Positions 8,713 to 25,063 of a DNA stretch of 32,000 nt are shown here, piece by piece. Made by a program: the position numbers and the translations under genes. Under the pieces are notes generated by a model. It made no database searches, had not been told where the DNA came from, and worked only from the letters and a program-made list of their open reading frames with translations. How positions within the stretch are numbered: the stretch's first letter is position 1; each line of letters opens with the position of its first letter. The stretch is from Aliivibrio fischeri ES114 (lineage in GTDB: Bacteria > Pseudomonadota > Gammaproteobacteria > Enterobacterales > Vibrionaceae), in NCBI RefSeq assembly GCF_000011805.1, contig NC_006840.2, one strand, 5' to 3'.

Positions 8713-9504
8713 TTAAAATAACTCAATATATAAAGTTTCATTCGACTTAAAGTTTAATGTTATATTTCCAATATGTTGGTCCGGTACTGAAAGAAGATTA
8801 CGACCATTTATATCCGCTAATATTGAGCACTGATCATAGTTTTCTTTTAACCCTTCAATAGTTTCATTGTAATGGTTCAACAAATCAAAACTTGCGAATG
8901 CAAAGCCTTCAGAAACAATATAATTTGGTTGTTTAGATTCTTTACTAAGGGCTACATCTCCATTGCTATAACAACGTAAAGAATGTATATCTATATCATA
9001 ACGATGATCGGATGCAGCACTCCATTGGATACGAACACTATTAGTTAATTCATAAGAGTTTATTGAAATATCACTAATTGGTTCAGGAAGGCGATCAAGA
9101 GTTGTATATCCAACAAGTTCATCATTTCTATACCAATTGAATTCATACATTGCTCCCATTGCATCGATTGTTGGAAACTCAATACCTGACAAATTCTCTC
9201 TACTATGTACAACTCCATCTTGAACTATTTCAACACGATCAATATCTGAAACATACATTTCATATGGAAATATAGGAGGTTTATAATCACTATAAAAATC
9301 ACCTCTAAAATACATGCTGTTATCATTTCTTAGGTGCATTGTATATCTCAATTCAAGCTGAGAAACAGGATATGTGCATGTCATTTCTTGTGCATTACTG
9401 CAATATCCATAAGGAGGATCTGTCTCATCACTTCCACCACCATCACTACCGCCACAAGCAGCAAGTAGCCCAAAACATGGGATCACTAATAAACTCTTTT
9501 TCAT
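8713..9504 (-). CDS. Hypothetical lipoprotein
   Basis: Start at 9504 gives MKKSLLVIPCFGLLAACGG, which contains the lipobox LAAC, and AAGGA lies 9 nt upstream. The longer ORF-track start at 9564 has no such support. I recognise no family. Confidence 0.65.
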   Translation of the reverse strand: MKKSLLVIPCFGLLAACGGSDGGGSDETDPPYGYCSNAQEMTCTYPVSQLELRYTMHLRNDNSMYFRGDFYSDYKPPIFPYEMYVSDIDRVEIVQDGVVHSRENLSGIEFPTIDAMGAMYEFNWYRNDELVGYTTLDRLPEPISDISINSYELTNSVRIQWSAASDHRYDIDIHSLRCYSNGDVALSKESKQPNYIVSEGFAFASFDLLNHYNETIEGLKENYDQCSILADINGRNLLSVPDQHIGNITLNFKSNETLYIELF

Positions 9505-9703
9505 AATAATCTGTCCTTGATAAATACCCAGAACAATTTTACGAACAAGAATCATACAATTCATTTACATAAATTATACCGAATGATAGGAGTCGCAATT
9601 TTGTATTTTAATGAAAACAATCTGCGAGCGACTTCATTATTATTAATTGAACAGCAAAATACATAATTGACTTCATTCAAAACATCATACCTAAAAACAA
9701 AGA

Positions 9704-9737
9704 AAAGCCCTTTAACTCTATAGAATTAAAGGGCTTT
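9704..9737 (-). terminator. Rho-independent terminator after the 9743-10231 gene
   Basis: 12-bp perfect stem AAAGCCCTTTAA (9704-9715) / TTAAAGGGCTTT (9726-9737). On the minus-strand transcript it is followed by a T-rich tract. Confidence 0.75.
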
Positions 9738-9742
9738 ATTTA

Positions 9743-10231
9743 CTATGCCGTAACTAGTGTTAACTGCTTATCTTGATTTTCTACATACCAGAAAGCCAAT
9801 AATGATACCGCCCAGAATTGAAATAAATATTGGACGTCAGAGGCTCCTGCTAATGTTTGTGTAACAGCCATTGATGCCGTTACAAACAAAGAGGATAACA
9901 AGCCTGCTTTCAATAATGTTTTAGGCTTATTCGGTAAGATTTCTAATTTCAGAAACGAGGTAATTAATAGCACAACAGGTAAAATTTGAAGCACGATTAA
10001 TACAGGAAATAAATAATCATACATAGGCACAAATATCGCGTCTGTTAATGGTTTTTTCGACCACGTACCTGCTATATATTCTTTCCATCCATCCCAACTA
10101 TCACCTTGTCGAGTACCAAATAAAATCCCATAAAACTTATCGACAACCCCGTTTGAAAACCAAAACGGAGCAAACAACATATAAAATGGAAGATATTTAA
10201 TAATTTCAATCGCTTTTTCTAATTTTTTCAT
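9743..10231 (-). CDS. Hypothetical multi-pass membrane protein
   Basis: ORF with several hydrophobic segments. AGGA lies 7 nt before the second ATG at 10231 (MKKLEK...), so I prefer that start over 10237. I recognise no family. Confidence 0.55.
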   Translation of the reverse strand: MKKLEKAIEIIKYLPFYMLFAPFWFSNGVVDKFYGILFGTRQGDSWDGWKEYIAGTWSKKPLTDAIFVPMYDYLFPVLIVLQILPVVLLITSFLKLEILPNKPKTLLKAGLLSSLFVTASMAVTQTLAGASDVQYLFQFWAVSLLAFWYVENQDKQLTLVTA

Positions 10232-10376
10232 TGTCATTTCCTAAGTATAAAATAAAAATATTTAATTAAATTTATACTAATTCCATTCATGCACTCGTAA
10301 CCCTAAACACAACAATTAAGTGGTGTAATTCGTAATAGTTAACGAGCAATCCCTGAAATTAGTATTACTTAGGTTT

Positions 10377-10772
10377 TTATTCTAGAAAAACGCAGAATCT
10401 AAGATGCCGACGCCGAACCTTCTGAACTTGTCGTTCTATGGGTCCAATAAAGATTGGAGGTGAATGAAGTAAAGGGATAACAACGAGAGCAATCGCTATG
10501 AATAACCAAGCACCTAAAAGTAAATCGTGCATGCTATTTTCAAAGGATAATAAGTGCTCAACCAATTCGCATTTAGGCGCTATCGGCTGAGAATCACTTC
10601 CTGTCACCGCCTCTAATTGGTGTACTTTTGTTTGCGCCTCAATCAAGTGTTCTTTACAACTTGAAGTTACACCAATCAATTGACTAAAACAGATAAACAC
10701 ACTTAAAAGAACTAAGCATAATAATAGCTTAGCTCTAAATTGTTTATTTCTATTTGAAATAAGTGTGCTCAT
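10377..10772 (-). CDS. Hypothetical two-TM protein with repeated Cys/His motifs
   Basis: 131-aa ORF with an N-terminal hydrophobic anchor and a second TM segment. The segment between them carries SSCKEHLIEA and PKCELVEHLL. No clear SD is present, so coding status is uncertain. Confidence 0.4.
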   Translation of the reverse strand: MSTLISNRNKQFRAKLLLCLVLLSVFICFSQLIGVTSSCKEHLIEAQTKVHQLEAVTGSDSQPIAPKCELVEHLLSFENSMHDLLLGAWLFIAIALVVIPLLHSPPIFIGPIERQVQKVRRRHLRFCVFLE

Positions 10773-10872
10773 AAATATCTTAGTAATAAGTTGAATATCA
10801 ATTACACCAACCCTAACAAAGAATCTCTTTGATATAAATCAGTTTTTTACTTATCAATAACCCATTCCTTGA

Positions 10873-11331
10873 TTAATATTCATCAGGTACTTTATCTAAT
10901 ACTCGTGTTTGAGCTAACTTAAGATAAGAGTGCAATTCATTATTCTTGTACTCTATTGCAGAATGAATATTTACAGATGAATTTGCCACAACCACGAAAT
11001 CATATTGATTTTCGTTCTTAAAAATTGATATGTATAGCAAACCATCAATGAGTTCCCAATGCCCTACCGTTTTTAATCGCTCAAACAAAGTAAACTCAAT
11101 TAAGCTCCCATTTTGACTAAATATAAGCTCCGTAATATAGCCAGCCGTACACGTTTTTATCCAGTGTGATTCAAAGATTTCTTCAAGTGAAAAATCTCTT
11201 TTTTGCTGACACCATGTAACGAGTTCTTTTTCTTGAATATCACAATGAGAAAGTTCATTACGTTCAACAATTGGCGTTCCTTTTACTTCACGCAAAAATA
11301 ACTGCTGCAATACGGCTTCTTTATTTGGCAT
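10873..11331 (-). CDS. Hypothetical cytoplasmic protein
   Basis: 152-aa ORF with a good SD, AGGAG, 7 nt upstream of the ATG. I recognise no family. Confidence 0.6.
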   Translation of the reverse strand: MPNKEAVLQQLFLREVKGTPIVERNELSHCDIQEKELVTWCQQKRDFSLEEIFESHWIKTCTAGYITELIFSQNGSLIEFTLFERLKTVGHWELIDGLLYISIFKNENQYDFVVVANSSVNIHSAIEYKNNELHSYLKLAQTRVLDKVPDEY

Positions 11332-11439: not shown

Positions 11440-12996
11440 CTACACCGTAACGCTTTTTGTGCAATCTACCGATGATTTACTTTCAAGCTCTGCACTCTTC
11501 ATACGTAGAACCGCAATCGGTCCAGTAATAAAAGTAACACCAACCAAGAAAGAAACCGGTACAGCTGTAATTACGATAAAGGATTGAAGTGCATTTAATC
11601 CACCATCACCCGCAATCAATAAAACGCCAGCAACCACACCCATCATAACCGCCCAAAATAGACGCTGATATCTTGACGGTGTATCAGTGCCCTCTACTGC
11701 CATTGCAATAGAATAAGCCATTGAATCACCTGTTGTTGCTACAAACGTCGTTGTAAGTACAAGGAATGCAGGTATCAATAAGAAACTAAAAGGTAATTGA
11801 GCTAATGATGCTAATAACACCGCAGGTAAGCCCGCTTCTTGCAATGGTTGAGAAATGCTACCCGGAGTTTGTAGCTCAAGGAAAATCCCTGTTCCACCCA
11901 ATGATGAAAACCAAAAGTTGGTCGCAATTGGAGCAATAATGGCTACCGTAATAATCAACTCACGAATGCTTCGGCCTTGAGAGATGCGTGCAATGAAAAT
12001 AGCCATCATTGGAGCAAAACCAATAAACCATCCCCAGAAGAACCACGTCCACCACGAATTCCAAGAAGGATCCGCTGTACTCAAGCTCATTTCAGGTAAG
12101 TGCTGAATATAAGTACCAAAAGCCATACCGAACTCTTTAAAGATAAAACCGGTAGGACCAAGAACTAAGATCGCAACTAATAATGCAACAGCACCAATAA
12201 CATTCATACGACTCAACCACTGTAAGCCCTTGTCCATGCCAGAGAAGGCCGAAACAGAATAAATGCTAACAATCACGGTCAAAATGATGATTTGGCTCAT
12301 CAGCGAGCTTTCAAGCCCTGTCAGGACTGTCAGACTGTAACTTAACTGTGTTGCTAAAAATCCAATAGGTCCAATGGTTCCTGCTGCTACAGCAATAATA
12401 GAACAAGCATCAATGACCGAACCAATCCAATGGTTCTCTAATTTGTCACCCAAAATAGGATATAACAATGCACGAGGACGAAGTTTTACACCGCAGTTAT
12501 AGTGGGCATACATAAGAACAATCGTGCTTAATGTGCCAAGCACAGCCCATGCTAAAAATCCCCAATGTAAAAAGCTTTGGCTTAAAGCTGGAGCAACTGC
12601 TGCCAACGTGCCACCTTTAACATCAGAAAAGCTTGGTGATGGTGTAATGAAATGGAAAATAGGTTCAGCTGCTGACCAAAACACGCCTCCGCCTGCAAGC
12701 AGAGTACACATGATCATTGCCACCCAACGAAAGGTACCTATCGTGGGTTTTGATTCACTGCCCATCTTAATTTTGCCATAACTGCTCATCGCAATGATAA
12801 AAGCTAAAACAAAAGTGATGATCATTAGCCACTGCCACCAATAGCCGAACATGGTCGAAACCGACATGAACAAAGATTGAATAGTTGCAGTAAATGCTGA
12901 GAGATCAACAAAGGCAGCTAAAAGAAATAGAAGGATAAATCCTATTGTGAGGGTTGGAACAAGTTTGTCGCTAGTTTGCTTACTATTTGTAGACAT
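11440..12996 (-). CDS. BCCT family (betaine/carnitine/choline) transporter
   Basis: 518-aa polytopic ORF with the Trp-rich BCCT signature WNSWWTWFFWGWFIGFAPMMAIFIARISQGRSIRE. Confidence 0.9.
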   Translation of the reverse strand: MSTNSKQTSDKLVPTLTIGFILLFLLAAFVDLSAFTATIQSLFMSVSTMFGYWWQWLMIITFVLAFIIAMSSYGKIKMGSESKPTIGTFRWVAMIMCTLLAGGGVFWSAAEPIFHFITPSPSFSDVKGGTLAAVAPALSQSFLHWGFLAWAVLGTLSTIVLMYAHYNCGVKLRPRALLYPILGDKLENHWIGSVIDACSIIAVAAGTIGPIGFLATQLSYSLTVLTGLESSLMSQIIILTVIVSIYSVSAFSGMDKGLQWLSRMNVIGAVALLVAILVLGPTGFIFKEFGMAFGTYIQHLPEMSLSTADPSWNSWWTWFFWGWFIGFAPMMAIFIARISQGRSIRELIITVAIIAPIATNFWFSSLGGTGIFLELQTPGSISQPLQEAGLPAVLLASLAQLPFSFLLIPAFLVLTTTFVATTGDSMAYSIAMAVEGTDTPSRYQRLFWAVMMGVVAGVLLIAGDGGLNALQSFIVITAVPVSFLVGVTFITGPIAVLRMKSAELESKSSVDCTKSVTV

Positions 12997-13273
12997 AAAT
13001 ATCTCACTTGATGCGTGAGGGATGGAACTCTAGCAGCTTAAAAAACGTAAAACCAGTGAAATATTTTTCAACTTTCCGATTTTCTAGTGAAAAAAATATG
13101 AATATCATCACAAAAAAAGAATATTACGCCTAAAAATCAGATAGTTATAAAATCAACCATAAAATAATACAAACAACCAAAAAAATTTACACTTTTATCA
13201 AAATAATCCATTCTGGGTAGGCTGTTTTTTAATCGTTAATTATATTCTTCATGGTTTATCTATCTCCTGTAAA

Positions 13274-13307
13274 ATTCATTTTATATTCATATTCGCTGTT
13301 TTATACT
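13274..13307 (+). promoter_or_regulatory. Candidate response-regulator box (ATTCAT-N5-ATTCAT) plus a -10-like TATACT upstream of the PepSY gene
   Basis: ATTCAT occurs at 13274-13279 and 13285-13290, an 11-bp period, with a partial third copy ATTCG at 13291. TATACT at 13302-13307 lies 31 nt before the ATG at 13338. Confidence 0.45.
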
Positions 13308-13337
13308 TAATCTCATAGCGAACTATTGGGATAAATC

Positions 13338-13724
13338 ATGCTTAAAAAATCAGTCATATACCTCGCCGCTCTTCTCTCTATATTCTCTCAGAATGTATTG
13401 GCCGATAATCATCATCAAAATGGGCATGAATTAGTCCAAGATATTCAAACGGCAGATACACGAATAGAGATAGACGAAGATCAAGATGAAGTATATGAAG
13501 CGGTTAAATTAGGGCTAATTAAGCCATTTTCTGAACTGTATACCACTGTCGCTCAAGACTTTAACGGCCGAATCATCAAAGTAGAACTTGAAGAAGACGA
13601 TGACGAATGGACCTATGAATTAAAAATCGTACACAATAACAATGTATTAAAAGTTGAATACAATGCGGCTAACCTTGCGATCACAGAAATTAAAGGTCGT
13701 GATATTCGAGCAGCACTTAAATAG
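13338..13724 (+). CDS. Secreted PepSY-domain protein
   Basis: 128-aa ORF with signal peptide MLKKSVIYLAALLSIFSQNVLA. The C-terminal part (IIKVELEEDDDEWTYELKIVHNNNVLKVEYNAANLAI) fits the PepSY fold pattern. It sits first in an operon with an OmpR-type RR and HK, which is a recurrent arrangement. Confidence 0.7.
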   Translation: MLKKSVIYLAALLSIFSQNVLADNHHQNGHELVQDIQTADTRIEIDEDQDEVYEAVKLGLIKPFSELYTTVAQDFNGRIIKVELEEDDDEWTYELKIVHNNNVLKVEYNAANLAITEIKGRDIRAALK

Positions 13725-13762
13725 ATCAACCCACAATTATATAAATAGAGATAACAATAATA

Positions 13763-14419
13763 ATGAAAATTTTAGTTGTAGAAGATGACTTACGTTTAGG
13801 CGCACAAATTGTAGAAACCCTAGAGTCTGCCGATTGGGTTCCTGAGTTATCACAAGATGGTGTTGATGCATTATATAGAGCAACAACTGAGGAATGGGAT
13901 GCTATTGTTCTTGATTTGGGCTTACCAAAATTAAATGGCCTAACGGTACTAAAAAGCATTCGTGATGAAAACATTAACACGCCCGTTATTATTTTAAGTG
14001 CTCGTGATACGTTATCACAACGTGTTGAAGGCTTAAATGCAGGCGCAGATGACTACTTAACTAAACCGTTTGAAATGGTGGAATTGATTGCTCGCATTCG
14101 TGCTCAATTACGTCGAGCCTCTGGCAATGCCTCCCCTATTTTAAAAATTGGTGATTTAAGCTTAGATACCCGCAGTTCCAAAGTTCTGTGGCAAGACCAA
14201 GCTGTAAGCCTGACAGCATTGGAATACAAGGTCGTTGCTTATTTCATGCACAATCCAGATAAGGTGATCTCTAGAACGACACTTGTTGAACATATCTATA
14301 AGCAAGATTTTGATCGTGATTCAAATACCGTTGAAGTATTTATTGGCCGAATTCGTAAAAAAATAGCGCCAAATATCATCAAAACCGTACGTGGTCTTGG
14401 TTATCAATTAAACTCATAG
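13763..14419 (+). CDS. OmpR/PhoB-family response regulator
   Basis: 218 aa. The REC domain reads MKILVVEDD...IVLDLGLPKLNG...KPF, and the winged-helix C-terminus reads LTALEYKVVAYFMHNPDKVISRTTLVEHIY...RGLGYQL. Confidence 0.92.
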   Translation: MKILVVEDDLRLGAQIVETLESADWVPELSQDGVDALYRATTEEWDAIVLDLGLPKLNGLTVLKSIRDENINTPVIILSARDTLSQRVEGLNAGADDYLTKPFEMVELIARIRAQLRRASGNASPILKIGDLSLDTRSSKVLWQDQAVSLTALEYKVVAYFMHNPDKVISRTTLVEHIYKQDFDRDSNTVEVFIGRIRKKIAPNIIKTVRGLGYQLNS

Positions 14420-14437
14420 AGCAAATCAAGGATAACG

Positions 14438-15802
14438 ATGAAAAAGGCACCCCGTCGTCTTCAACATACATTAAAAAAATTAAGTTTAAAAAGCCGCTTG
14501 CTTCTTGCTGCGGCTTTTTGGCTATCTTCAATGATTTTAGCGGCTGGCATTGGTATTCCAAAACTAGTCAATGATTATCTGATTAAAGATGTAAAACAAC
14601 AATTAGCCTTATCTATGGATGAAATCACGGCTAATTTAGAAACCAACGAACAAGGAAAGTTAGTTTTATTCTCTCGACTTTCTGATCCTCGTTTTAATCA
14701 GCCTTATAGCGGTCTATACTGGACTGCAAGTACCAAAAAAGATGAACTGCGTTCTCGTTCTTTATGGGATAAGAAGCTAAAATTTAAAGACAATTCTTTA
14801 GATATCGCTCCTACAGTAAAGGGAGCAAAAGACGAAAAACTTATCTATATTCAAAAACACATATACCTTCCAGAAATTAAAGCACCAATAACAATAACCA
14901 TTGGTGTGGATGAAAATCCCTTAGAAAAAACATTACACCAATTAACAGGACAAGTTTGGGTTATCTTAGGATTACTATTTAGCGGTGTTTTATTCCTTAT
15001 TGGTATTCAAGTCAGTTGGTCTTTACGCCCACTTGCTAAAATGCAATCTGAACTTATTCAACTGCGCAAAGGAGAACAACAAAATTTAAGCCAACACTAC
15101 CCTCAAGAAATAGCCCCTTTGGTTTCGGATCTCAATGCGCTTTTATTTCATTATCAAGAATTACTGGATCGTGCTCGTAACCATGCAGGCAACTTATCTC
15201 ATTCTTTAAAAACACCACTATCCGTCCTTAAAAATGAGTTAGAGCATTTAAGCGAAGAGGATAAAAAGCGCTTATCTCTGCCTATTAATAAACTTCAAGA
15301 GCACATCGACTACCATTTAGGCCGTGCTCGCATGGCTGGATCAATGAATATTTTATCTGTTTCAACCTCTCCATCCGATCGTGTTGATGCCATATCAATG
15401 GCTTTTGATAAAGTCTATGCTGTTCGTGAAATCATGTTAATTAACGAACTTAATAGTGATGACAATATTGCCGTAGAAGCAACAGATCTTGATGAAATGC
15501 TTGGTAATTTACTCGAAAATGGCTATAAGTGGGCAAGTTCTATGATTCGTGTTCATTCAAAATACGCTGCTGACAATCTCATTGAAATCACGATCGAAGA
15601 TGATGGAAATGGCATACCAGAAGATAAACTAGAGCACGTAATTCGACGAGGTGTACGTCTGGATGAATCAACCCCAGGTACAGGGCTTGGTTTAAATATT
15701 GTAGACGAAATGGCACACAGCTACCGCGGTTCATTGCTTTTAGATAGAAGTAAAATGGGCGGCTTAAAAGCAACCCTCACCTTTCCACTGGTGACTAATT
15801 AA
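14438..15802 (+). CDS. Sensor histidine kinase (PhoQ/PmrB-like architecture: TM-periplasmic-TM-HAMP-HisKA-HATPase)
   Basis: 454 aa. H-box is NLSHSLKTPLSVL, N-box LLENGYKWA, and G-boxes DDGNGIP and GTGLGLNIV. The periplasmic segment contains DPRFNQPYSGLYW. An AAGGA SD lies upstream. Confidence 0.9.
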   Translation: MKKAPRRLQHTLKKLSLKSRLLLAAAFWLSSMILAAGIGIPKLVNDYLIKDVKQQLALSMDEITANLETNEQGKLVLFSRLSDPRFNQPYSGLYWTASTKKDELRSRSLWDKKLKFKDNSLDIAPTVKGAKDEKLIYIQKHIYLPEIKAPITITIGVDENPLEKTLHQLTGQVWVILGLLFSGVLFLIGIQVSWSLRPLAKMQSELIQLRKGEQQNLSQHYPQEIAPLVSDLNALLFHYQELLDRARNHAGNLSHSLKTPLSVLKNELEHLSEEDKKRLSLPINKLQEHIDYHLGRARMAGSMNILSVSTSPSDRVDAISMAFDKVYAVREIMLINELNSDDNIAVEATDLDEMLGNLLENGYKWASSMIRVHSKYAADNLIEITIEDDGNGIPEDKLEHVIRRGVRLDESTPGTGLGLNIVDEMAHSYRGSLLLDRSKMGGLKATLTFPLVTN

Positions 15803-15813
15803 CAATAAATAAC

Positions 15814-15853
15814 CTCGTACGTTATCCATTATTACCAATAGGTAACGTACGAG
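15814..15853 (-). terminator. Hairpin at the convergent HK / DedA-LssY junction, probably the terminator of the minus-strand operon
   Basis: 11-bp perfect inverted repeat CTCGTACGTTA (15814-15824) / TAACGTACGAG (15843-15853). The right arm lies inside the last codons of the minus-strand CDS. On the minus transcript the stem is followed by TTATTTATTGTT. Confidence 0.5.
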
Positions 15854-17099
15854 TACTGATAACCAATATCTCTCCATCAGAATAATAATCATGCTCTTCA
15901 TCTTTACTCACAGGTGCTGAATAAGCTTGTTTCGATGTAAATAGATTGTTCGAAAATAAATCGATCGTTCTTTTAAATTTATCTCTTTCTTTATCTACAT
16001 CTGAATCAATGCTGTGCAGCATAGTTACTATTCCTCGATATGGAGTAAAGGTCAGACCATCATCATAACTTAACGCCCCTAACCAAACCTGTTGTTCCCC
16101 GCTATTTCTTCCAGCATTCCACCAACGGATATGACTTCGTTTTAATAAATTTCCTGGTAATTGAAAAGCCATATCTTGAACTCGCCCATTCCAAAACAGA
16201 TCGGATACTGGTGGCGTCTTATTCCTCATAAGTAAAAAATAATCGACTAAATTAATATCATTTCTTGAAAATGTTTTGTTTTCAATCCACCCAAGTTGAT
16301 TCATTATCGTCTGAGGATTGTTACCGATAAATACAACGTTAATTGCTTGTGCATCAAAAAAAGACGACTCTCCAGGGAATGCTTTGAATACGGTGCGTGT
16401 TTCATCAAAATACAAAGGGTTAGCCTTAACATCTTTGATTAAGTCATCGGCCGACCAAAAAAAATGACTGTAATTTAAATAAGCCACTGCCGCTATAAGA
16501 GCAAAGGTGAATTTTAATCCGAGTCTGCGCCATCGATAACGTTTAGCTATGAACAAAAAAACACTCAAGAAAACCAGCATCAGAATAGACTGTATATGTT
16601 CTACAACAAAAAGCTCAGCTTCTTTTAGCAATGGTAGCGTATCAATGCCATAAGATAATAAATATCCCCATAGAACAAATTGAGTAACACCGAGTAGCAA
16701 ACCAATAGAAGTCAATAATGTAAATCTCCCCCAAGCAATATGATTAACACCAGCGATAAAAGGAACTATCCACGCTACAGGTCCTAACAAGCGAGAAAAA
16801 ACAAGAACGATAGTTCCTCTCTTTTGCAATAGCAAACGGCAACGAGCGATAGGACGTCGTGTTTTTGGCAGCCACCTCATTAACCATGATTGAGCATTTC
16901 GTCCAAATCGGCGACCAATAACATAGCTAATTTGATCGCCTAAAAAACCGCCTAAAATGACAGCAACAACGCCACTCCAAATACCTTGATGAAGCCGAAA
17001 GCCTGCTGCAATTAAAAAAGGTTCCCCAGGAACAAATACATTAGGTCCTATGAGCGCATCAAATAATGCGCCCCAAAACAAAGTCATCGTATCAAACAT
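15822..17099 (-). CDS. DedA (VTT/SNARE-associated) membrane domain fused to a C-terminal LssY_C-like domain
   Basis: 425 aa. The N-terminal part carries DedA motifs (GEPFLIAAGF...GGFLGDQISYVIGRRFGR) and is followed by further TM segments. The roughly 210-aa soluble C-terminus (HIRWWNAG...VWLGALSYDDGL...HSIDSDVDKERD) resembles the LssY C-terminal domain. It starts 20 nt downstream of the GT2 gene. Confidence 0.75.
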   Translation of the reverse strand: MFDTMTLFWGALFDALIGPNVFVPGEPFLIAAGFRLHQGIWSGVVAVILGGFLGDQISYVIGRRFGRNAQSWLMRWLPKTRRPIARCRLLLQKRGTIVLVFSRLLGPVAWIVPFIAGVNHIAWGRFTLLTSIGLLLGVTQFVLWGYLLSYGIDTLPLLKEAELFVVEHIQSILMLVFLSVFLFIAKRYRWRRLGLKFTFALIAAVAYLNYSHFFWSADDLIKDVKANPLYFDETRTVFKAFPGESSFFDAQAINVVFIGNNPQTIMNQLGWIENKTFSRNDINLVDYFLLMRNKTPPVSDLFWNGRVQDMAFQLPGNLLKRSHIRWWNAGRNSGEQQVWLGALSYDDGLTFTPYRGIVTMLHSIDSDVDKERDKFKRTIDLFSNNLFTSKQAYSAPVSKDEEHDYYSDGEILVISTRTLPIGNNG

Positions 17100-17119
17100 A
17101 ATTTACCTTTACGTATAAA

Positions 17120-17851
17120 TTACTTTTGATTTGAATAATGTCCGAACTTATATTCCATTTCGTTATTGCGCATTTCTCCAAACAAGAAACGGCGAACATT
17201 AGCTTTTAAATAGGTATACCCCATTCGCAAAAAGCCATCTTGTTCTAAACGACGTGGATCAAACTCAAATGTCATTGGAAGAAAACGAAAACGCCAAGTT
17301 CTGCTTGCTCTTTTTACGTAATCACAATCTTCGCATAACGTAATATTTTCATCGAAGCCAAGAAGATCTTTATGCGCTCTTCTAGTCGAAAAAATACACG
17401 CTCCAACTGCGGTAGGAAATGCAAATTGAGTTAGAAACAGACCAATATTAAACGTCATATAACCAAGTTTATGAGCAACAGGTAACCCTTTCGAGCCCAT
17501 ATATACGCCTGCCACTTCAAGTCCTTTTTCATTAAGTTGAGTTAATGCTTTAGTAAGAAAGTCTGGAGACAAACGCACGTCAGCATCTAAAAATAATAAA
17601 CGTTCATGTTTAGCAAGTGATGCTCCTGTATTACGACCTAGACTAACTCCTTGTTTATCCATTTTATGAACGGTTAAATCAGGAATACTTGCAGAGAAGG
17701 ATTGTGCAACCTCACACGTCGCATCTGAACTATTTGAATCAACAACAATTACTTCAAAATTTTTGAATGTTTGCTCTGTTAAATCTTCAAGTAAACGTCC
17801 AATACGATTTTCTTCATTTAAAGTAATAATAACAATGCTTAATGGGTTCAT
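17120..17851 (-). CDS. Family 2 glycosyltransferase
   Basis: Start at 17851 (MNPLSIVIITLNEE...) follows a GGAGG SD. The GT2 pattern includes IVVDSNSSD and the DxD-like LFLDADV. The ORF-track extension to 17917 lacks support. Confidence 0.85.
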   Translation of the reverse strand: MNPLSIVIITLNEENRIGRLLEDLTEQTFKNFEVIVVDSNSSDATCEVAQSFSASIPDLTVHKMDKQGVSLGRNTGASLAKHERLLFLDADVRLSPDFLTKALTQLNEKGLEVAGVYMGSKGLPVAHKLGYMTFNIGLFLTQFAFPTAVGACIFSTRRAHKDLLGFDENITLCEDCDYVKRASRTWRFRFLPMTFEFDPRRLEQDGFLRMGYTYLKANVRRFLFGEMRNNEMEYKFGHYSNQK

Positions 17852-17930
17852 AGTGTACCTCCAAGTAAAATGAATTAAGCTACTTGAGGCCATAATAACG
17901 AATACTATCTTAACCAATGGTGAGAGGTTT

Positions 17931-17947
17931 ATTCATCTTTGATTCAT
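17931..17947 (+). promoter_or_regulatory. Second copy of the ATTCAT-N5-ATTCAT direct repeat, in the GT2 / small-ORF divergent region
   Basis: ATTCAT occurs at 17931-17936 and 17942-17947, the same hexamer and same 11-bp period as at 13274-13290. It lies about 80 bp upstream of the GT2 start (opposite strand) and about 135 bp upstream of the 18082 ORF. Confidence 0.45.
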
Positions 17948-18081
17948 TCTTTGCAATCGAACTTGTTATTTGCATATAAACCATCGTCTGCTTTTTATTC
18001 AATCTAACATTTCATTTTTAGCTGTAGCACATCATTCTCACCTCATATATTGTTAAATTTGTGTTTAAGAAGGAGAAAGAA

Positions 18082-18264
18082 ATGAAAGTGATAATTCAAT
18101 ACACTCAAACAGGTATGTATAAAGACCATGCATGGGAAGCATCTACAATTAGAATTCAGGGACAGTATCATGCAGTTACGCCATCCTATGCCGCTCAACT
18201 TATCGAACAAAATAAAGCACAGTTACACACCGATAATAGCAATAATATTGTGTTAGTTGATTGA
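18082..18264 (+). CDS. Small hypothetical protein (60 aa)
   Basis: ATG at 18082 follows AAGGAG with a 6-nt spacer. Translation is MKVIIQYTQTGMYKDHAWEASTIRIQGQYHAVTPSYAAQLIEQNKAQLHTDNSNNIVLVD. I recognise no family. Confidence 0.45.
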   Translation: MKVIIQYTQTGMYKDHAWEASTIRIQGQYHAVTPSYAAQLIEQNKAQLHTDNSNNIVLVD

Positions 18265-18304
18265 TTTAAAGATTGAAAATTCGATTGGAATTTGATGATT
18301 TATC
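18259..18304 (+). repeat. Four tandem 11-12 bp GATTG-type repeats
   Basis: The units are GATTGATTTAAA, GATTGAAAATTC, GATTGGAATTT and GATGATTTATC. They start at the last codons of the small ORF. Confidence 0.5.
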
Positions 18305-18326
18305 AATAAGATAAAAAGAGAAAGGA

Positions 18327-18352
18327 AAGCCACACGTCTCAAAATGTGGCTT
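18327..18352. terminator. Hairpin, a possible bidirectional terminator
   Basis: Stem AAGCCACA (18327-18334) / TGTGGCTT (18345-18352). The minus-strand reading is followed by the T-rich TCCTTTCTCTTTTTATCTT; the plus-strand U-tract is weak. Confidence 0.45.
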
Positions 18353-18508
18353 AATTTGGAACTGTTCGGGGTCATAACCGGACGTGTTAACTATCTAATA
18401 TCACTGACTTAATTTCAACAGTTTTTGTGAACACAATGGTCAGAAAAAGTACAAATTTTGAAGTTGTTCCGTATTTTGTGAGTCGTGTAACACTAATTAG
18501 CTTGCTAC

Positions 18509-20551
18509 TCAACCTACCAAATTATGATATTGCTGTTCTTCTGTCTTTGTTGGCAAATAGATCGTAAAGACGGTTCCCTTTCCAAGTTGTGATCTCACTT
18601 TAATTTCACCACCAGTTTGACTTAATAAACTTTGAGAAACAGATAAACCAAGCCCTGTTCCATCACGCTTTGTTGTATAGAACGGGTCAAAAATTCGATT
18701 CAATTGTTCGCCAGCAATACCACATCCAAAATCTTCTACTTCTATAATCGCACCAAACTCAACCCCTTCATGACACCAAGTTCGACTACGAATGATAAGT
18801 TTACCTTTACTGTTCATCGCATGGATGCCATTCATTTGCAGATTGACTAATACTTGCAATAAATGATGGCGATTCACTTCCACTCTTGGTGGCTGCTCAA
18901 AATCAAACTCAACCTCAATATCTCGTTTGTGAGCCCCTGTACGAACTAAGGTAACGCTTTCTTCAATGATTGGATTAATGTATTGCCATGTCACCTCATC
19001 TTGAATCCCACCTTGTCGACTGTACTGCAATAAACTACGAGTGATATTACGGATTCGGTCTATTTGCTCCATAATGGTTTCTAGCTCTTCAGCTATTACG
19101 TGGGCCTCTTCACCTAATTCATATTTAATTAATTCTGCATTACCTAGAATAACAGCTGTAGGATTATTAATTTCATGAGCAATACCAGCAGTCAACTCAC
19201 CAAGTGATGCCAATTTTTCACTCATTACCAGCTTATCTTGAGCTTGTTTTAGCAATTTTATGTATTGCTCTAATTCCACTGTCTTTTCATGCAAACTTGC
19301 CGTTCTTGATTCAACTTTTGACTCTAACTCTTTAGATGCCCTTTGGATCTCTAAATTTCGTAACTGAAGTTGATCAAGCATATTGTCAAACTGCTGCGCT
19401 AAGCTGGCCAGTTCATGACTATTATCTAATCCTAAGTCCCCAATTCGAACATCTTTACCTAATTGGACAGACTTTACTACAAAGTGAATTTTTTCGATCG
19501 GTTGAAATAGATCTCGAGCTCCTCGATGCACAAAAAAGGTCGACAATAATAACGTAATAAGAATGGTGATCCCTGCTTCAAGCAAGTTTTGTAAATACTG
19601 TTTTAATAGCGGCCACTCTAAATAGCCGGTATAAAGCATTCCAATCACATCTCCATTCATATCTTTAATCGGTTGATATGCTGAAATGTACCAATCATTG
19701 TAAACATAAGCTCTATTTACCCATCGCTCTCCAGCACCAATAACTTGTGCTTTCACTTCTGGAGATACTTTGGTTCCAATAGCACGGCCTTGGTTTAGCT
19801 CTTTATTTGCAAAATCAGTATGCAGTGGAACGTTGGTACTAATACGAAGTCCATCTAAAAATAACGTTACTGTCCCTATATTATTGGATGGTAAATCGCC
19901 TGATGGATAGATCAAATCACGGATTCTATCGACAAGTAATGTGCTGTTATTTAATATAATTCCACTATCGACAATCCAAGTTAACGTCCCTTTATTATCA
20001 AAAATTGGTATTAACGTTCGGCTAATCAAACCACGCTTTTCTATACTTCCATCTTCTTTGTTAGTCACCCAAACCTGTTGTTTCAGTTTAGGATTAATAT
20101 CCGCTAACTCTTTTTCAGACATGACTTGAAAGAAGGTTCGTGACATACCAATCTTCATATCATTGACTAAAGAAGAAGGTAGCTCATTCATATAAGAGAT
20201 TGGATGTAACGCAATAAAATCAGAGTTGTATTTCCCCGCTTGTTGCGAAACCCACAACTCAAAATCAGGTGCTTTATTTTCAAACTTTTTTTGAAAATAA
20301 TACGATTCTACAAAGCCTCTCAATTCTGCGCTTTGCTCTCGCTGTAAAAAATCAATACTGTTATTGGCAACAGATAATTTACTACCAACATCATTCAGTG
20401 CATTTTGCCAAGTATAATGTGTAGACCAAAATGCAGTAATGATCACGAGAGCGAGTAAGGTTAAGAATAATGGAACCGAGTTCAACCAAAGTAAGCGATA
20501 ACGCACCATGGTTTTAATGCGTTTTTTCCAAACCGTCGGAGATAGCGTCAT
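18509..20551 (-). CDS. Sensor histidine kinase with a large (about 280 aa, double-Cache-sized) periplasmic domain, HAMP, coiled coil, HisKA and HATPase
   Basis: H-box is GELTAGIAHEINNP (NtrB/AtoS type), and G-boxes are DFGCGI and GTGLGLSVS. Two TM segments flank a long periplasmic region. I prefer the ATG at 20551 because it forms an ATGA overlap with the upstream regulator's stop codon. Confidence 0.9.
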   Translation of the reverse strand: MTLSPTVWKKRIKTMVRYRLLWLNSVPLFLTLLALVIITAFWSTHYTWQNALNDVGSKLSVANNSIDFLQREQSAELRGFVESYYFQKKFENKAPDFELWVSQQAGKYNSDFIALHPISYMNELPSSLVNDMKIGMSRTFFQVMSEKELADINPKLKQQVWVTNKEDGSIEKRGLISRTLIPIFDNKGTLTWIVDSGIILNNSTLLVDRIRDLIYPSGDLPSNNIGTVTLFLDGLRISTNVPLHTDFANKELNQGRAIGTKVSPEVKAQVIGAGERWVNRAYVYNDWYISAYQPIKDMNGDVIGMLYTGYLEWPLLKQYLQNLLEAGITILITLLLSTFFVHRGARDLFQPIEKIHFVVKSVQLGKDVRIGDLGLDNSHELASLAQQFDNMLDQLQLRNLEIQRASKELESKVESRTASLHEKTVELEQYIKLLKQAQDKLVMSEKLASLGELTAGIAHEINNPTAVILGNAELIKYELGEEAHVIAEELETIMEQIDRIRNITRSLLQYSRQGGIQDEVTWQYINPIIEESVTLVRTGAHKRDIEVEFDFEQPPRVEVNRHHLLQVLVNLQMNGIHAMNSKGKLIIRSRTWCHEGVEFGAIIEVEDFGCGIAGEQLNRIFDPFYTTKRDGTGLGLSVSQSLLSQTGGEIKVRSQLGKGTVFTIYLPTKTEEQQYHNLVG

Positions 20552-21975
20552 GCGTTTTCTTCGCTCCACTCTTTAAACTTACGCTCTAAAGTTTTACGAG
20601 CAACCCCCAACTGCCTTGCAGCTGCAGATTTATTACCATCATGAAGATCCACGACAGTGATGATGTGTGATTTTTCCACTTCTTTTAATGTCCATTTTTC
20701 TGGGTAAGTATCTAAGATAGGCATACAAGTACACTCGCCTTCTTTATTCCTTGATGCGTCATCATTTTTATTCTGTTCATTGTCTTGATGAATTGGCTCA
20801 TCACCTTGTAGTTCAGCCCAATGTTCAACAGGTGGTTTGCCTAATAAAATACAGCGTTCAATCATGTTTTTAAGCTCACGGATATTACCCGGCCAATCGT
20901 AATTTGCCATTGCGACGATATCTTCATGAGCCCAATGCACAGGTTTTACTCCCATTTCACTCGCAATCATTTGAGAAAAATGCTCAGTTAAACATGCAAG
21001 ATCCGCTTTTCGCTCTCGTAATGCTGGTAGAGAAACCGTCAAAACATTTAAACGATAAAATAAATCTTTTCTGAAATTTCCTTTTTCCACTTCTTCTAAT
21101 AAATTACGGTTAGTAGCAGCAACAATACGAACATCAACAGGAATTTCTTTTTCAGAGCCTACAGGTCTAATGGCTTTTTGCTCTAACGCTCGCAGCAACG
21201 ATGATTGCATTCCAATTGGCATTTCACCGATTTCATCTAAAAACAGTGTCCCACCATTCGCAACTCTGAATAAACCCTCACGCCCTTTCTTAGCACCAGT
21301 AAACGCACCAGAAGTATGCCCAAACAATTCACTTTCAAGTAAGTCAGGAGCAATAGCCCCGCAGTTTAATGGTACAAACGGCCCTTTGCGTTCACTTAAT
21401 TGGTGCAAACCACGAGCAACTAACTCTTTACCTGTTCCTGATTCACCTTCAATTAATACAGCTGCATTAGATGGAGCAAGTTGAGCAACCATTTTCTTTA
21501 GTTGTAACGTTTTCTCTGCATTACCGATGATCTCAATCGGATTCTTCTTCTCGACTTCTCTTTTTAAAGCAAAGTTTGTTCGCTCAACTAAACGACGATC
21601 CATGCATCGTTTTACTGCTTGTAGCATGTTTTCAAGATTAAACGGTTTTAAAATAAAATCAGATGCGCCAAGTCGAAGTGCTTGAATCGCCGTATCTAAC
21701 TCCGCATAACCTGTCATGAAAATCACATCATAATTACGCGCATCACATGCAATGCTTTCTTGCCACTCTAAACCTGTTTGACCTGGTAAGTTAATATCAA
21801 GAATGATTAAATCAAGATGGTGAGATTGTCGAATTTCTTCTGCTTCTTCAATCGTACCTGCGGTATGCACTTGTCCAAATTGTTTACTTAATGCTTTTTT
21901 TAGTATGGTTTGCATACCAATTTCATCATCAACAACAAGAACTGAAAACGCATTCCAATCTGATTTTACAACCAT
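20548..21975 (-). CDS. Sigma54-dependent (NtrC-family) response regulator
   Basis: The REC domain reads VLVVDDE...LIILDINLPG. The AAA+ domain has Walker A GESGTGKE and the sigma54-contact motif GAFTGA. The C-terminus has the Fis-type HTH AAARQLGVARKTLERKFKEW. An AGGA SD lies upstream. Confidence 0.92.
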   Translation of the reverse strand: MVVKSDWNAFSVLVVDDEIGMQTILKKALSKQFGQVHTAGTIEEAEEIRQSHHLDLIILDINLPGQTGLEWQESIACDARNYDVIFMTGYAELDTAIQALRLGASDFILKPFNLENMLQAVKRCMDRRLVERTNFALKREVEKKNPIEIIGNAEKTLQLKKMVAQLAPSNAAVLIEGESGTGKELVARGLHQLSERKGPFVPLNCGAIAPDLLESELFGHTSGAFTGAKKGREGLFRVANGGTLFLDEIGEMPIGMQSSLLRALEQKAIRPVGSEKEIPVDVRIVAATNRNLLEEVEKGNFRKDLFYRLNVLTVSLPALRERKADLACLTEHFSQMIASEMGVKPVHWAHEDIVAMANYDWPGNIRELKNMIERCILLGKPPVEHWAELQGDEPIHQDNEQNKNDDASRNKEGECTCMPILDTYPEKWTLKEVEKSHIITVVDLHDGNKSAAARQLGVARKTLERKFKEWSEENA

Positions 21976-22009
21976 ATTTATTCCTAATAAGATCTAAAGT
22001 GTTATGTGG

Positions 22010-22082
22010 GTCAAAATGTCCTAATTATTCTAACCTGTTATTCGCAAAATGTATCCTTTCTATTGCGACATTTTGTCCTAAT
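22010..22082 (+). promoter_or_regulatory. Candidate upstream activator sites: three related motifs sharing CAAAATGT..CCT / TGTCCTAAT
   Basis: The three copies are GTCAAAATGTCCTAAT (22010-22025), GCAAAATGTATCCT (22044-22057) and GACATTTTGTCCTAAT (22067-22082). The last contains the dyad GACA-N3-TGTC. They lie about 90-160 bp upstream of the -24 element. Confidence 0.4.
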
Positions 22083-22169
22083 CACATTTTTTGTAAGGTT
22101 TTTATGTAAGAATCCAATTCAACCACTTAAATATCATTACGTTAAGTGTGTGTTTAAAGGCATTATACT

Positions 22170-22185
22170 TGGCATAGTGATTGCT
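22170..22185 (+). promoter_or_regulatory. Sigma54 (-24/-12) promoter of the tupA operon
   Basis: TGGCATAGTGATTGCT has GG at 22171-22172 and GC at 22183-22184, exactly the GG-N10-GC spacing. It matches consensus TGGCAC-N5-TTGCW at all but one position and lies about 70 nt upstream of the tupA ATG. Confidence 0.7.
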
Positions 22186-22256
22186 TTAGTGGGTACGAGT
22201 CTATTCACTTCAGAGCATTATGCTTTGCAAGTTAAACTTCATTACATGGATATAAC

Positions 22257-23078
22257 ATGAACAATAAAATTAAGACATTTTCTGCAGTTGCTGCACTGGC
22301 TTTAGGTTCTTTCTCTGCGACTGACGTATACGCTAATGACGCAAACGTTGTACGTTTAGCAACGACAACAAGTACTTACCACTCAGGCTTATTAGATTAC
22401 CTTCTTCCAGAATTCCAAAAAGATTCAGGCTACGAAGTTCAAGTTCTTGCTGCTGGTACTGGTAAAGCATTGAAAATGGGCGAAAATGGCGATGTTGATT
22501 TAGTAATGACTCACGCACCAAAAGCTGAAGCAAACTTTGTTGAAAAAGGCTACGGTGTTGAGCCAAAATCACTGATGTACAATGACTTTGTGCTAGTAGG
22601 TCCTAAAGCTGACCCTGCTCATATTCACGGTATGAAAGACGTTACTGCAGCATTCAAAAAAATGGCTGAATCTGACGTAACTTTCGTATCACGTGGCGAT
22701 GATTCTGGTACAAACAAAAAAGAATTGAATCTTTGGGCTCAAACTAAAATTGAACCAAACTTCGGTGGTTATAAAGCCGTTGGTCAAGGTATGGGTCCAA
22801 CACTAAACATGACTTCTGAACTACAAGCTTATACCTTAACAGACCGTGGTACTTGGTTAGCTTACCAGAACAAACTTGATCTTGAGATCATGGTTGAAGG
22901 TGATAAACGTCTATTCAACCCTTACCAAGTAATTCTAATTAACCCTGAGCGTTACAAAAACCTAAACACAAAAGGTGCGCAAGCATTCAGTGATTGGTTA
23001 GTAAGCGATAAAGGTCAGGCAATGATTAATAGCTTCAAACTGAATGGTAAACAACTGTTCACTGCGGACGCTAAATAA
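22257..23078 (+). CDS. tupA: Tungstate/molybdate ABC transporter periplasmic binding protein, TupA type
   Basis: The ORF has a signal peptide. The TupA hallmark RLATTTSTYHSGLLDYLLPEF (TTTS motif) is followed by AAGTGKALKMGENGDVDLVMTH. Confidence 0.85.
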   Translation: MNNKIKTFSAVAALALGSFSATDVYANDANVVRLATTTSTYHSGLLDYLLPEFQKDSGYEVQVLAAGTGKALKMGENGDVDLVMTHAPKAEANFVEKGYGVEPKSLMYNDFVLVGPKADPAHIHGMKDVTAAFKKMAESDVTFVSRGDDSGTNKKELNLWAQTKIEPNFGGYKAVGQGMGPTLNMTSELQAYTLTDRGTWLAYQNKLDLEIMVEGDKRLFNPYQVILINPERYKNLNTKGAQAFSDWLVSDKGQAMINSFKLNGKQLFTADAK

Positions 23079-23081
23079 TAC

Positions 23082-23780
23082 ATGACTATTTTAGCCACCT
23101 CTCAAGAGGCAATTCAATTACTGTTTAGTGGTGATACTGCATTATGGAGCATCGTAGGTGTTTCATTTTCTGTATCCCTATTTGCAATGGCAGTTGTATT
23201 ATTACCTGCTCTTTTGTTGGCATTTGCGCTTGCTTATGGATCTTTTCCTGGGCGGTGGCTATTACTTTCTATTATGAATACATTGCAATCCGTGCCCACC
23301 GTTGTTATTGGGTTGCTACTGTATATGATGCTTTCTCGTGCTGGCCCATTAGGTGACTGGCAACTACTCTTTACCCAAGAAGCAATGGTTATTGGACAGA
23401 TATTTATCTGTTTTCCAATTATGGTCGCTATGATGCATGGTGCATTTCAGCACAGTGACCGTCGTGTTTGGGAAACCTCATTCACGCTTGGTGCTTCACT
23501 TCCACGCGCATTTGGCAGCTTAATTTGGGAGACTCGCTTCCCTATTTTAGCCGCTGTAATCGCTGGATTTTCTCGTATAATTACTGAAGTAGGTTGTTCA
23601 ATGATGGTTGGTGGTAACATCTTCAACTCTACTCGAAATATTCCAACTGCGATTGCAATGGAAAGCCAAAAAGGCGCATTTGCACAGGGTGTTGCTCTTG
23701 GTATGGTGTTATTAGTTTTAGCACTCGTTTTAAACTTTTTACTCTCTATCACTCGTGGTAAAGGGTATTTACGTACTTAG
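23082..23780 (+). CDS. tupB: Tungstate ABC transporter permease
   Basis: 232-aa polytopic ORF starting 3 nt after tupA, with an ABC permease (BPD_transp_1-like) pattern. Confidence 0.8.
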   Translation: MTILATSQEAIQLLFSGDTALWSIVGVSFSVSLFAMAVVLLPALLLAFALAYGSFPGRWLLLSIMNTLQSVPTVVIGLLLYMMLSRAGPLGDWQLLFTQEAMVIGQIFICFPIMVAMMHGAFQHSDRRVWETSFTLGASLPRAFGSLIWETRFPILAAVIAGFSRIITEVGCSMMVGGNIFNSTRNIPTAIAMESQKGAFAQGVALGMVLLVLALVLNFLLSITRGKGYLRT

Positions 23781-23793
23781 TAGGCATATAACG

Positions 23794-24501: not shown

Positions 24502-25063
24502 TTGGGTAATTTTAGCGGGTGGGCAAGCTCGTCGTATGGGTGGAAAAGATAAAGGGTTTGTTTTATTTCAAGATAAAGCACTCATCGAGCACGCTCTAGA
24601 CACATTGACATCTCAAACTGACCAAATTGCCATTAATGCTAATCGCAGTATTGAAGAATACTCACGTTACGCTGTCACCTTCCCTGACCAATTTAGTGAA
24701 TACCCAGGGCCTTTAGCGGGTATGCATTCTGGTCTTGTAAATATGAATTCTGACTGGGTTGGGTTTATTCCATGTGATTCCCCTAACCTACCAAACAATT
24801 TAGTTTCTTTGCTTTGTAATGCCGTCAAAGAAGATACTGATATTGTGGTAGCTCACGATGGTGAGTACATGCAACCGGTTGTCACTTTAATGCACAAACG
24901 TATTATTCCAAAAATTGATGCCTTTTTAACGCGTGGAGACAGAAAAATCATCCTATTATACAAAGAGTGTAATACTGTATTTGCTGATTTCTCTGACTAC
25001 CCTAACGCGTTTATCAATTTGAATAGTCCTCAAGAACTTGAACAATTTGGAACTTTATTATGA
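24479..25063 (+). CDS. mobA: Molybdenum cofactor guanylyltransferase
   Basis: VILAGGQARRMGGKDKGF, YPGPLAGM and PCDSP align with E. coli MobA. Starting at ATG 24479 after AAGGA gives 194 aa, the E. coli length. The gene overlaps the tupC 3' end by 23 nt. Confidence 0.9.
   Translation: MLQPKQTSWVILAGGQARRMGGKDKGFVLFQDKALIEHALDTLTSQTDQIAINANRSIEEYSRYAVTFPDQFSEYPGPLAGMHSGLVNMNSDWVGFIPCDSPNLPNNLVSLLCNAVKEDTDIVVAHDGEYMQPVVTLMHKRIIPKIDAFLTRGDRKIILLYKECNTVFADFSDYPNAFINLNSPQELEQFGTLL

Follow-up and report, generated by a model that had tools for sequence, protein, structure and literature searches.

The DbfQ-DbfR-DbfS system of Vibrio cholerae (VC1637-VC1638-VC1639) is a recently described pathway of envelope stress and biofilm lifecycle, and PepSY-linked two-component modules are widespread in bacteria. 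The present analysis deals with a direct repeat of two hexamers, ATTCAT-N5-ATTCAT, which is found twice in a 32,000-nucleotide stretch of the genome of Aliivibrio fischeri ES114 (this whole stretch is hereafter called the window). One copy lies in front of genes for a PepSY-domain protein, an OmpR-family response regulator and a PhoQ-like histidine kinase, the other in front of a neighbouring operon coding for a family-2 glycosyltransferase (GT2) and a DedA::LssY_C fusion protein. From the comparison of promoter sequences it is considered probable, at about 80%, that both copies (the boxes) are operators of DbfR, serving autoregulation and control of the GT2 operon.

The V. cholerae genes were described as PhoPQ-like by Matson et al., who reported the residues D8, D9 and D51 in the regulator and H254 in the kinase; the products are now named DbfQ, DbfR and DbfS. 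DbfQ (VC1637) binds DbfS in this organism. The system responds to outer-membrane damage and to polymyxin B, Fe(II) being no activator. The activity of a P_dbfQRS-lux reporter is about 40-fold up in dbfS or dbfQ mutants, where DbfR is phosphorylated, and falls below the wild type with DbfR D51V. RNA sequencing of the dbfS mutant showed an increase of 6.1 log2 units for dbfQ and of 6.9 for dbfR. The primers of the reporter delimit a fragment of about 210 bp which ends at the ATG of dbfQ. The DbfR regulon and its direct targets were called undefined by the preprint authors. For sipA (vca0732), the one target reported, Saul-McBeth and Matson stated that it is unknown whether VC1638 binds directly.

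Two other systems are relevant for comparison. BqsR of Pseudomonas aeruginosa binds TTAAG-N6-TTAAG overlapping the -35 region upstream of its own PepSY genes, within an autoregulated operon, and its regulon comprises envelope and cationic-stress genes; its partner BqsS was considered as the DbfS ortholog by Nguyen et al. The Vibrio CarRS/VprAB system (VC1320/VC1319) is encoded in a carRS-ompV-virK operon, and a GACAN6TACA site was proposed for it in V. vulnificus.

The dbfQRS locus of A. fischeri

The three genes of interest are located on the plus strand, between a BCCT transporter gene and the genes for the DedA/VTT::LssY_C fusion and for GT2, all three of which are on the minus strand.

13338-13724, plus strand: dbfQ, secreted PepSY-domain protein of 128 aa (Pfam PepSY)
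13763-14419, plus strand: dbfR, OmpR/PhoB-family response regulator of 218 aa with D51 as phospho-acceptor (Pfam Response_reg and Trans_reg_C)
14438-15802, plus strand: dbfS, PhoQ-like sensor histidine kinase of 454 aa (HATPase_c and HAMP_PhoQ domains)

The order of the PepSY, regulator and kinase genes is the same as in V. cholerae. It is identical in all 80 loci of an ortholog set from Aliivibrio and Vibrio (one locus per species), with dbfQ heading the operon in 80 of 80. The dbfR product is 80-100% identical across Vibrionaceae loci, and the dbfS orthologs of Aliivibrio and Vibrio are 60-96% identical. The best NCBIfam match of the dbfS product is PhoQ, under the cut-off of that family. 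A contig of A. fischeri carrying the window's own sequence (L001), whose kinase, regulator and neighbouring genes are 96-100% identical to those of the window, was included in the promoter counts, which gives 81 dbfQ promoters. The full comparison set consisted of 86 loci (1.1 Mb) and served as background for motif frequency.

As judged from sequence, the PepSY, regulator and kinase genes are the ortholog of V. cholerae dbfQRS. This assignment was made by mapping V. cholerae primers on the V. mimicus locus (L071), together with identities and residues. The primers vc1637_2700up, vc1639_2700up and vc1639_Real_C and those of the P_dbfQRS reporter all map to V. mimicus at the expected offsets. 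The regulator of the window is 84% and the kinase 63% identical to their V. mimicus counterparts, in the same gene order (83-84% and 63% when V. metoecus is considered as well). Residues D8, D9 and D51 of the translated regulator and H255 of the kinase match those reported for VC1638 and for VC1639 (H254).

CarRS/VprAB was a first guess for the identity of the locus and was discarded. It shares with the present system that it is a polymyxin-responsive OmpR-family two-component system which autoregulates and controls envelope modification, via almEFG and eptA. However, it is a paralogous system encoded at VC1319-20, with an ompV-virK context in place of a PepSY gene and with another motif. The window locus maps to VC1637-39, and its repeat is unlike GACAN6TACA.

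The box at the dbfQRS promoter

The following elements were defined in front of dbfQ.

13274-13290, plus strand: predicted DbfR box (ATTCAT-tttat-ATTCAT) in the promoter of dbfQRS, with two direct repeats at an 11-bp period, located at the -35 position
13302-13307, plus strand: TATACT as -10 hexamer of the same promoter, 11 nt past the box, with no -35 hexamer; also found in a promoter scan

The first-pass annotation had pointed to two copies of the repeat in promoter regions, and this was confirmed. The exact form, ATTCATNNNNNATTCAT (ATTCAT-N5-ATTCAT), has two matches in the window, at 13274-13290 and at 17931-17947, both on the plus strand, against 0.03 expected copies; none of 100 dinucleotide-preserving shuffles yielded two or more. 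When up to two mismatches were allowed, 10 matches were obtained versus 9.4 expected, so near-matches have chance frequency and the exact copies alone stand out. The hexamer ATTCAT itself is present 27 times on the plus and 22 times on the minus strand, i.e. about once per 1.2-1.5 kb; the earlier estimate of once per 2 kb and strand was slightly low, whereas it was right to expect far less than one pair at a fixed offset in the window. The flanks and distances quoted at that stage were also right (TATACT 11 nt past the first box, PepSY ATG at 13338, gap of 230 bp behind GT2). Domain searches agreed with it that the dbfR product is the sole OmpR-type regulator of the window. A position weight matrix of the box ranked the copy at 13274-13290 at the top of the window with 20.0 bits, and gave 17.0 bits for the one at 17931-17947.

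Comparison across species showed that the box is retained in orthologous loci while the flanking sequence drifts. In 80 of the 81 loci, RTTCAN-N5-RTTCAN is present in the 300 nt that precede dbfQ; the exceptional locus has ATTCAT-N5-ATTAAT. In an ungapped alignment of the 66 unique sequences, anchored on the box, the TTCA core is invariant in the first half-site and, save for one TTAA, also in the second, and the spacer shows a preference for tTTct. The 30 nt upstream of the box display about 0.1 bit per column. In 77 of 81 loci (62 of the 66 unique sequences), the box is followed by a hexamer TAnnnT (consensus TATAcT) at a distance of exactly 11 nt; this count is independent of how the box was selected. 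What lies upstream of dbfQ varies by clade: in the window it is the divergent BCCT transporter gene, in most Vibrio species the end of a gene running in the same direction as dbfQ. The element therefore belongs to dbfQ. In the 86 loci, RTTCAN-N5-RTTCAN has 141 matches versus 11.8 in shuffled sequence: dbfQ promoters account for 81 of them and GT2 promoters for 40, which leaves about 20, at the level of chance. The box is thus about 12-fold over-represented, and the excess is confined to these two promoters.

The arrangement is that of an OmpR-family operator. Such operators have two half-sites of 5-7 bp, head-to-tail, with a period of about 10-11 bp; here two hexamers are placed head-to-tail with a period of 11 bp, which is invariant in the 66 unique dbfQ and in 37 unique GT2 promoters. 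The dbfQ box ends 11 nt before TAnnnT in 77 of 81 loci, in the -35 place, where contact with RNA polymerase is possible. PhoB is a class II activator, whose tandem repeat of 11-bp period replaces the -35 element about 10-11 nt upstream of the -10 hexamer of activator-dependent promoters. The dbfQ box resembles the pho box in its period and in its location in the -35 place, and differs from it in the half-site. By its sequence and position, the dbfQ box is a predicted activator site of the PhoB/BqsR type which replaces the -35 element.

With the BqsR (CarR) box of P. aeruginosa, the dbfQ box shares the direct repeat of 5-6-bp half-sites, the 11-bp period, the location over -35 and the position upstream of PepSY genes. 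The half-sites differ, being RTTCAY in the DbfR candidate and TTAAG for BqsR. The boxes of the dbfQ and GT2 promoters are thus not made of TTAAG (TTAMG) repeated after 6 nt, and a TTAA(G/T) half-site was only found in a second, proximal repeat of the GT2 promoter (see below). The box would work like a BqsR box without being one. DbfR itself is nearer to BasR/PmrA (E = 1.5e-41 over the full length) than to the BqsR/CarR receiver domain (E = 1.3e-26), the latter being the sole BqsR/CarR chain among the matches listed.

The expression data of V. cholerae can be related to this element. By homology, the reporter fragment of V. cholerae is predicted to contain the box. In V. mimicus the box starts 65 nt before the ATG of dbfQ, and the rest of the fragment equivalent to the reporter is mostly the 3' end of the upstream gene. 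Activation by phosphorylated DbfR thus needs no more than this fragment of about 210 bp, of which the box and the -10 hexamer are the sole conserved non-coding features. Positive autoregulation of the operon by phosphorylated DbfR is documented in V. cholerae, and the conserved promoter suggests the same for A. fischeri.

The GT2 operon and its promoter

The second box is located in the 230-bp gap between GT2 and a small open reading frame (ORF), from 17852 to 18081. The operon and the elements of its promoter are as follows.

17120-17851, minus strand: family-2 glycosyltransferase of 243 aa, first gene of the operon (Pfam Glycos_transf_2, E = 2.6e-26)
15822-17099, minus strand: DedA (VTT domain)::LssY_C fusion membrane protein of 425 aa, second gene of the operon (Pfam VTT_dom and LssY_C)
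17931-17947, plus strand: predicted high-affinity DbfR box, ATTCAT-ctttg-ATTCAT, inverted relative to GT2, 80-96 nt before the GT2 ATG
17909-17925, minus strand: conserved degenerate direct repeat TCTCAC-cattg-GTTAAG (the proximal repeat), 5 nt downstream of the inverted box and 11 nt upstream of the -10 hexamer
17892-17897, minus strand: -10 hexamer TATTAT of the GT2 promoter, at a fixed distance of 11 nt from the proximal repeat; GT2 ATG at 17851

The first-pass annotation had missed that this box is inverted relative to GT2 and that it is paired with a conserved degenerate repeat. The GT2-DedA::LssY_C operon is found beside or near dbfS in 37 genome loci, and the box is present and inverted in all of them, its distal edge lying 89-120 nt (mostly 93-96 nt) before the GT2 ATG. 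Five further GT2 operons were fetched via homologs of the DedA::LssY_C protein, and four of them, from V. coralliilyticus, V. profundum, V. hangzhouensis and Grimontia, carry the box in the same place and orientation. In the three Vibrio species among these, the operon is unlinked from dbfQRS and has nevertheless retained the box. V. caribbeanicus has, between dbfS and rplY, a divergent GT2 gene of 40% identity with the same promoter. A few GT2-promoter boxes have TTAA in one half.

An ungapped alignment of 37 unique promoters, read in the orientation of GT2, gave the following layout.

Upstream flank: 0.31 bit per column
17947-17931, minus strand: inverted box, consensus RTGAAY-N5-RTGAAY, 1.53 bit per column
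Gap of 5 nt between the inverted box and the proximal repeat: 0.50 bit per column
17925-17909, minus strand: proximal repeat, consensus nCTmAs-N5-rTTAAk, 1.21 bit per column
Spacer of 11 nt from the proximal repeat to the -10 hexamer: 0.33 bit per column
17897-17892, minus strand: -10 hexamer TAnnnT, 1.34 bit per column, with 2.0 at T1, A2 and T6

Box and proximal repeat are thus both at fixed spacing to a conserved TAnnnT. In 37 of 37 unique promoters the proximal repeat is placed 22 bp, or two helical turns, from the inverted box (centre to centre), and it shares the 11-bp period and the 11-nt distance to -10 with the consensus box of the dbfQ promoter. Scored with the half-site matrix of the dbfQ boxes, it falls in the top 0.02-1.8% of background 17-mers, which is a weak resemblance and not a proof. 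In the Splendidus clade it reads CCTAAG-N5-GTTAAG and comes near to a BqsR box. We propose that DbfR may bind the proximal repeat with low affinity, in the place of a -35 hexamer. The textbook pho box comprises no inverted consensus box two helical turns further upstream.

With respect to the products of the operon, DedA proteins have been implicated in undecaprenyl-phosphate flipping and in polymyxin resistance. The GT2 protein has only generic family-2 relatives in the PDB. Of the best 120 homologs of the DedA::LssY_C fusion, those with a named source all come from Vibrionaceae. The fusion has no relative in the PDB by sequence. Its AlphaFold2 model (mean predicted local distance difference test score of 80) displays a helical membrane part and a beta-rich C-terminal domain, and gave no Foldseek match at E <= 0.001. 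The LssY_C domain covers residues about 235-416, with a predicted beta-rich fold and invariant H323, H362, D369 and H403. From these family assignments, the operon probably remodels the envelope via a polyprenyl-phosphate-linked sugar.

Unlike A. fischeri and many other vibrios, V. cholerae has no GT2-DedA::LssY_C operon after dbfS: rplY directly follows dbfS, so that the operon appears to be absent from that position. The GT2 promoter is divergent from rplY, which encodes ribosomal protein L25, in V. caribbeanicus (L078, 7394-8659) and V. coralliilyticus (L085, 3632-4982). This, together with the V. cholerae arrangement, suggests that the operon was lost or moved from the dbfS-rplY slot in some lineages.

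Predicted DbfR operators and competing explanations

On the grounds of the conserved boxes at the dbfQ and GT2 promoters and of the autoinduction seen in V. cholerae, autoregulation by DbfR and its control of the GT2 operon are regarded as well supported by comparative evidence, which agrees with the proposal of the first-pass annotation that the regulator and the operon form one module; each of the computational checks suggested there speaks for it. At the dbfQRS promoter, a dimer of phosphorylated DbfR would bind head-to-tail to RTTCAY-N5-RTTCAT. Sitting in the -35 place, 11 nt upstream of TATACT, it would recruit RNA polymerase by class II activation as PhoB and BqsR do, and DbfR would thereby regulate its own operon positively. 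At the GT2 promoter, a first dimer, bound to the strong distal inverted box, may help a second one to load on the weak proximal repeat. The GT2 operon would then fire only once phosphorylated DbfR has been amplified, later than the autoregulated dbfQRS promoter. We infer DbfR binding to the box, the cooperativity of two dimers, the transcription starts and the biochemistry of the operon.

Several observations weigh against this interpretation. No electrophoretic mobility shift assay, footprint, chromatin immunoprecipitation or motif for DbfR of any species was found in the literature searched, the DbfQRS preprint and a 2025 Nature Communications paper included, and nothing published on DbfQRS in A. 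fischeri was found there. V. cholerae, the experimental species, apparently has no GT2 operon after dbfS, so that its expression data do not address the link to GT2. The -10 hexamers are assigned solely by their conservation. With the full matrix, the proximal repeat scores in the top 0.06-2.6% of background and could bind something else, and a strong box in inverted orientation is atypical of a simple class II activator. In Grimontia, dbfQ is missing and a degenerate box precedes dbfR: the locus of G. indica (L086, 6370-8470) comprises dbfR (regulator 84% identical) and dbfS without upstream dbfQ, its adjacent GT2 operon keeping a consensus inverted box. Finally, no box was found at the GT2 operon of V. 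amylolyticus (L084), the fifth of the operons fetched, where GT2 follows a cytochrome c gene. This operon (1635-11332 of L084) is flanked by two other OmpR-type two-component systems and by a GT2/PMT (ArnT-like)/GtrA cluster, and it may have been rewired to another regulator.

A chance coincidence of two copies in an AT-rich genome would find some support in the frequency of the hexamer (49 copies on both strands of the window) and in the chance frequency of near-matches. It is already refuted by the expected number of exact copies (0.03, with two in 0 of 100 shuffles) and by the fact that both sites are fixed in position, orientation and spacing across dozens of species with fully diverged flanks. 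It is also quite improbable that the box is the site of another OmpR-family regulator which binds direct repeats, such as PhoB or CpxR, and that DbfR autoinduction is indirect. The half-site TTCAY does resemble TGTCA of PhoB and TTTAC of CpxR (on the reverse strand), and the literature searched holds no DbfR-DNA binding data. CpxR overexpression was noted by Matson et al. to raise vc1639 and vca0732. However, the box accompanies dbfQRS in 80 of 81 loci, and the other operon which it accompanies usually adjoins dbfS; induction of the short promoter fragment requires D51 of DbfR. With its 11-bp period and RTTCAY half-site, the box is distinct from those published or generally known for CpxR (10-bp period), PhoB, PmrA, PhoP and RstA/CarR (GACAN6TACA). 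Moreover, binding to its own operator is the usual route by which a regulator controls itself, as demonstrated for the analogous BqsR.

At the GT2 promoter the question is rather which side and which repeat DbfR uses. The first-pass annotation had considered the 60-aa ORF beyond GT2 as a possible target. This ORF is followed by genes for a Cache kinase and a sigma-54 regulator on the minus strand.

18082-18264, plus strand: 60-aa ORF preceded by a good Shine-Dalgarno sequence, assigned to no family of Pfam or NCBIfam, 75-98% conserved in five Aliivibrio loci only

That the second box serves this ORF, or an unannotated divergent transcript, and not GT2 is very improbable, although the box is oriented towards the ORF as the first box is towards dbfQ and although the ORF is conserved in those five loci. 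No Vibrio or Grimontia locus contains the ORF, and two Aliivibrio loci with the box lack it as well. The distance of the box is fixed to the elements on the GT2 side, whereas the other flank is unconserved (0.31 bit per column), and no -10-like hexamer is present 11 nt after the box on the plus strand, neither in the window nor in other clades. The start of the ORF is 135 nt from the end of the box, and an E-value scan of 12900-18600 against Rfam returned no match. The ORF was thus rejected as a target. It is unlikely, too, that DbfR uses only the inverted distal box, be it as a class I-type activator, a repressor or an anti-activator, the proximal repeat being the site of another factor or an unusual core-promoter element. 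In favour of this, the proximal repeat scores weakly with the box matrix, its half-sites (CTCA/CTAA and TTAA) are consistently unlike TTCA, and BqsR boxes have been reported as positive or negative depending on position. Against it, the proximal repeat matches the dbfQ box in period (11 bp) and in distance to -10 (11 nt), and lies exactly two helical turns away from the distal box in 37 of 37 promoters. Simple repression is also hard to reconcile with a distal box that lies clear of the core promoter.

A wider version of the DbfR-operator reading is held only tentatively and is, on balance, doubtful: the GT2-DedA::LssY_C operon might be the direct and principal output of DbfQRS in Vibrionaceae, and the ancestral one, acting in polyprenyl-phosphate-linked envelope glycosylation or recycling through a composite operator of 39 bp, and lost in V. 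cholerae. Two DbfR dimers would sit head-to-head on this operator, the strong inverted box loading the weak box at the -35 position, and outer-membrane damage would switch on the pathway. If this were true, V. cholerae, the one species studied so far, would have lost its GT2 output, and the biofilm-dispersal picture of DbfQRS would miss the core function of the system.

The DbfQRS system and its regulatory logic, which is classical for the OmpR/PhoB family, are known already. What is new is a candidate DbfR operator, a conserved candidate target operon and a predicted promoter design combining an inverted and a direct repeat. No DbfR site has been published according to the literature searched, so the proposed box would be the first. 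A concrete operator, RTTCAY-N5-RTTCAT at 11 nt before -10, makes the question of direct DbfR targets testable. The GT2-DedA::LssY_C operon as candidate target would link the sensing of outer-membrane damage to a possible new route of envelope modification and to antimicrobial-peptide tolerance, and the composite operator offers a tidy model of threshold control by an OmpR-family regulator.

Weaker candidate sites were also inspected. A third element had been noted in the GT2 leader, the minus-strand 10-mer ATTCATTTTA, at 17865-17874; the position was one base off and the true place is 17866-17875. It is not significant (0.43 copies expected, at least two in 5 of 100 shuffles). The half-site at this place reads RTGAAY in 16 and RTTCAY in 3 of 38 unique leaders; it is lineage-specific, switches orientation between lineages, and was dropped as a meaningful site. 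Other matrix matches in the window (at 21441, 12866, 22246 and elsewhere) are in coding sequence or over a start codon and were taken as chance. The one at 22246-22262 on the minus strand, GTTCATGTTATATCCAT, reaches 13.2 bits over the start codon of the PBP_like_2 gene, with TCCA as second core. A homolog of YgiW/BOF (sipA type) was not found in the 1.1 Mb of loci by phmmer with E. coli YgiW and Salmonella YdeI queries.

Outside the two promoters, an intergenic element GTTCAAAAA(A/T)TGTTCA(T/C) is conserved in four loci of the harveyi/alginolyticus type (L074 at 10231-10247 on the plus strand, L045, L059 and L066). The L074 copy is flanked by a 5'-nucleotidase gene and by an ORF of 96 aa, and no -10 hexamer is present at +11. 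From its sequence, this element may be another DbfR site, or it may be unrelated.

Elsewhere in the window, four consecutive ORFs of 283, 164, 131 and 152 aa (8713-11331, minus strand) have no Pfam family at E <= 0.01, and all or some of them are found in the same order upstream of the BCCT transporter gene in most Aliivibrio loci. In the region 18509-26841, the genes for the Cache-domain histidine kinase and the sigma-54 response regulator adjoin those of a PBP_like_2 ABC transporter, after which come mobA and a fused mobB-moeA gene. This region could represent a molybdate/tungstate-type uptake and cofactor cluster under sigma-54 control.

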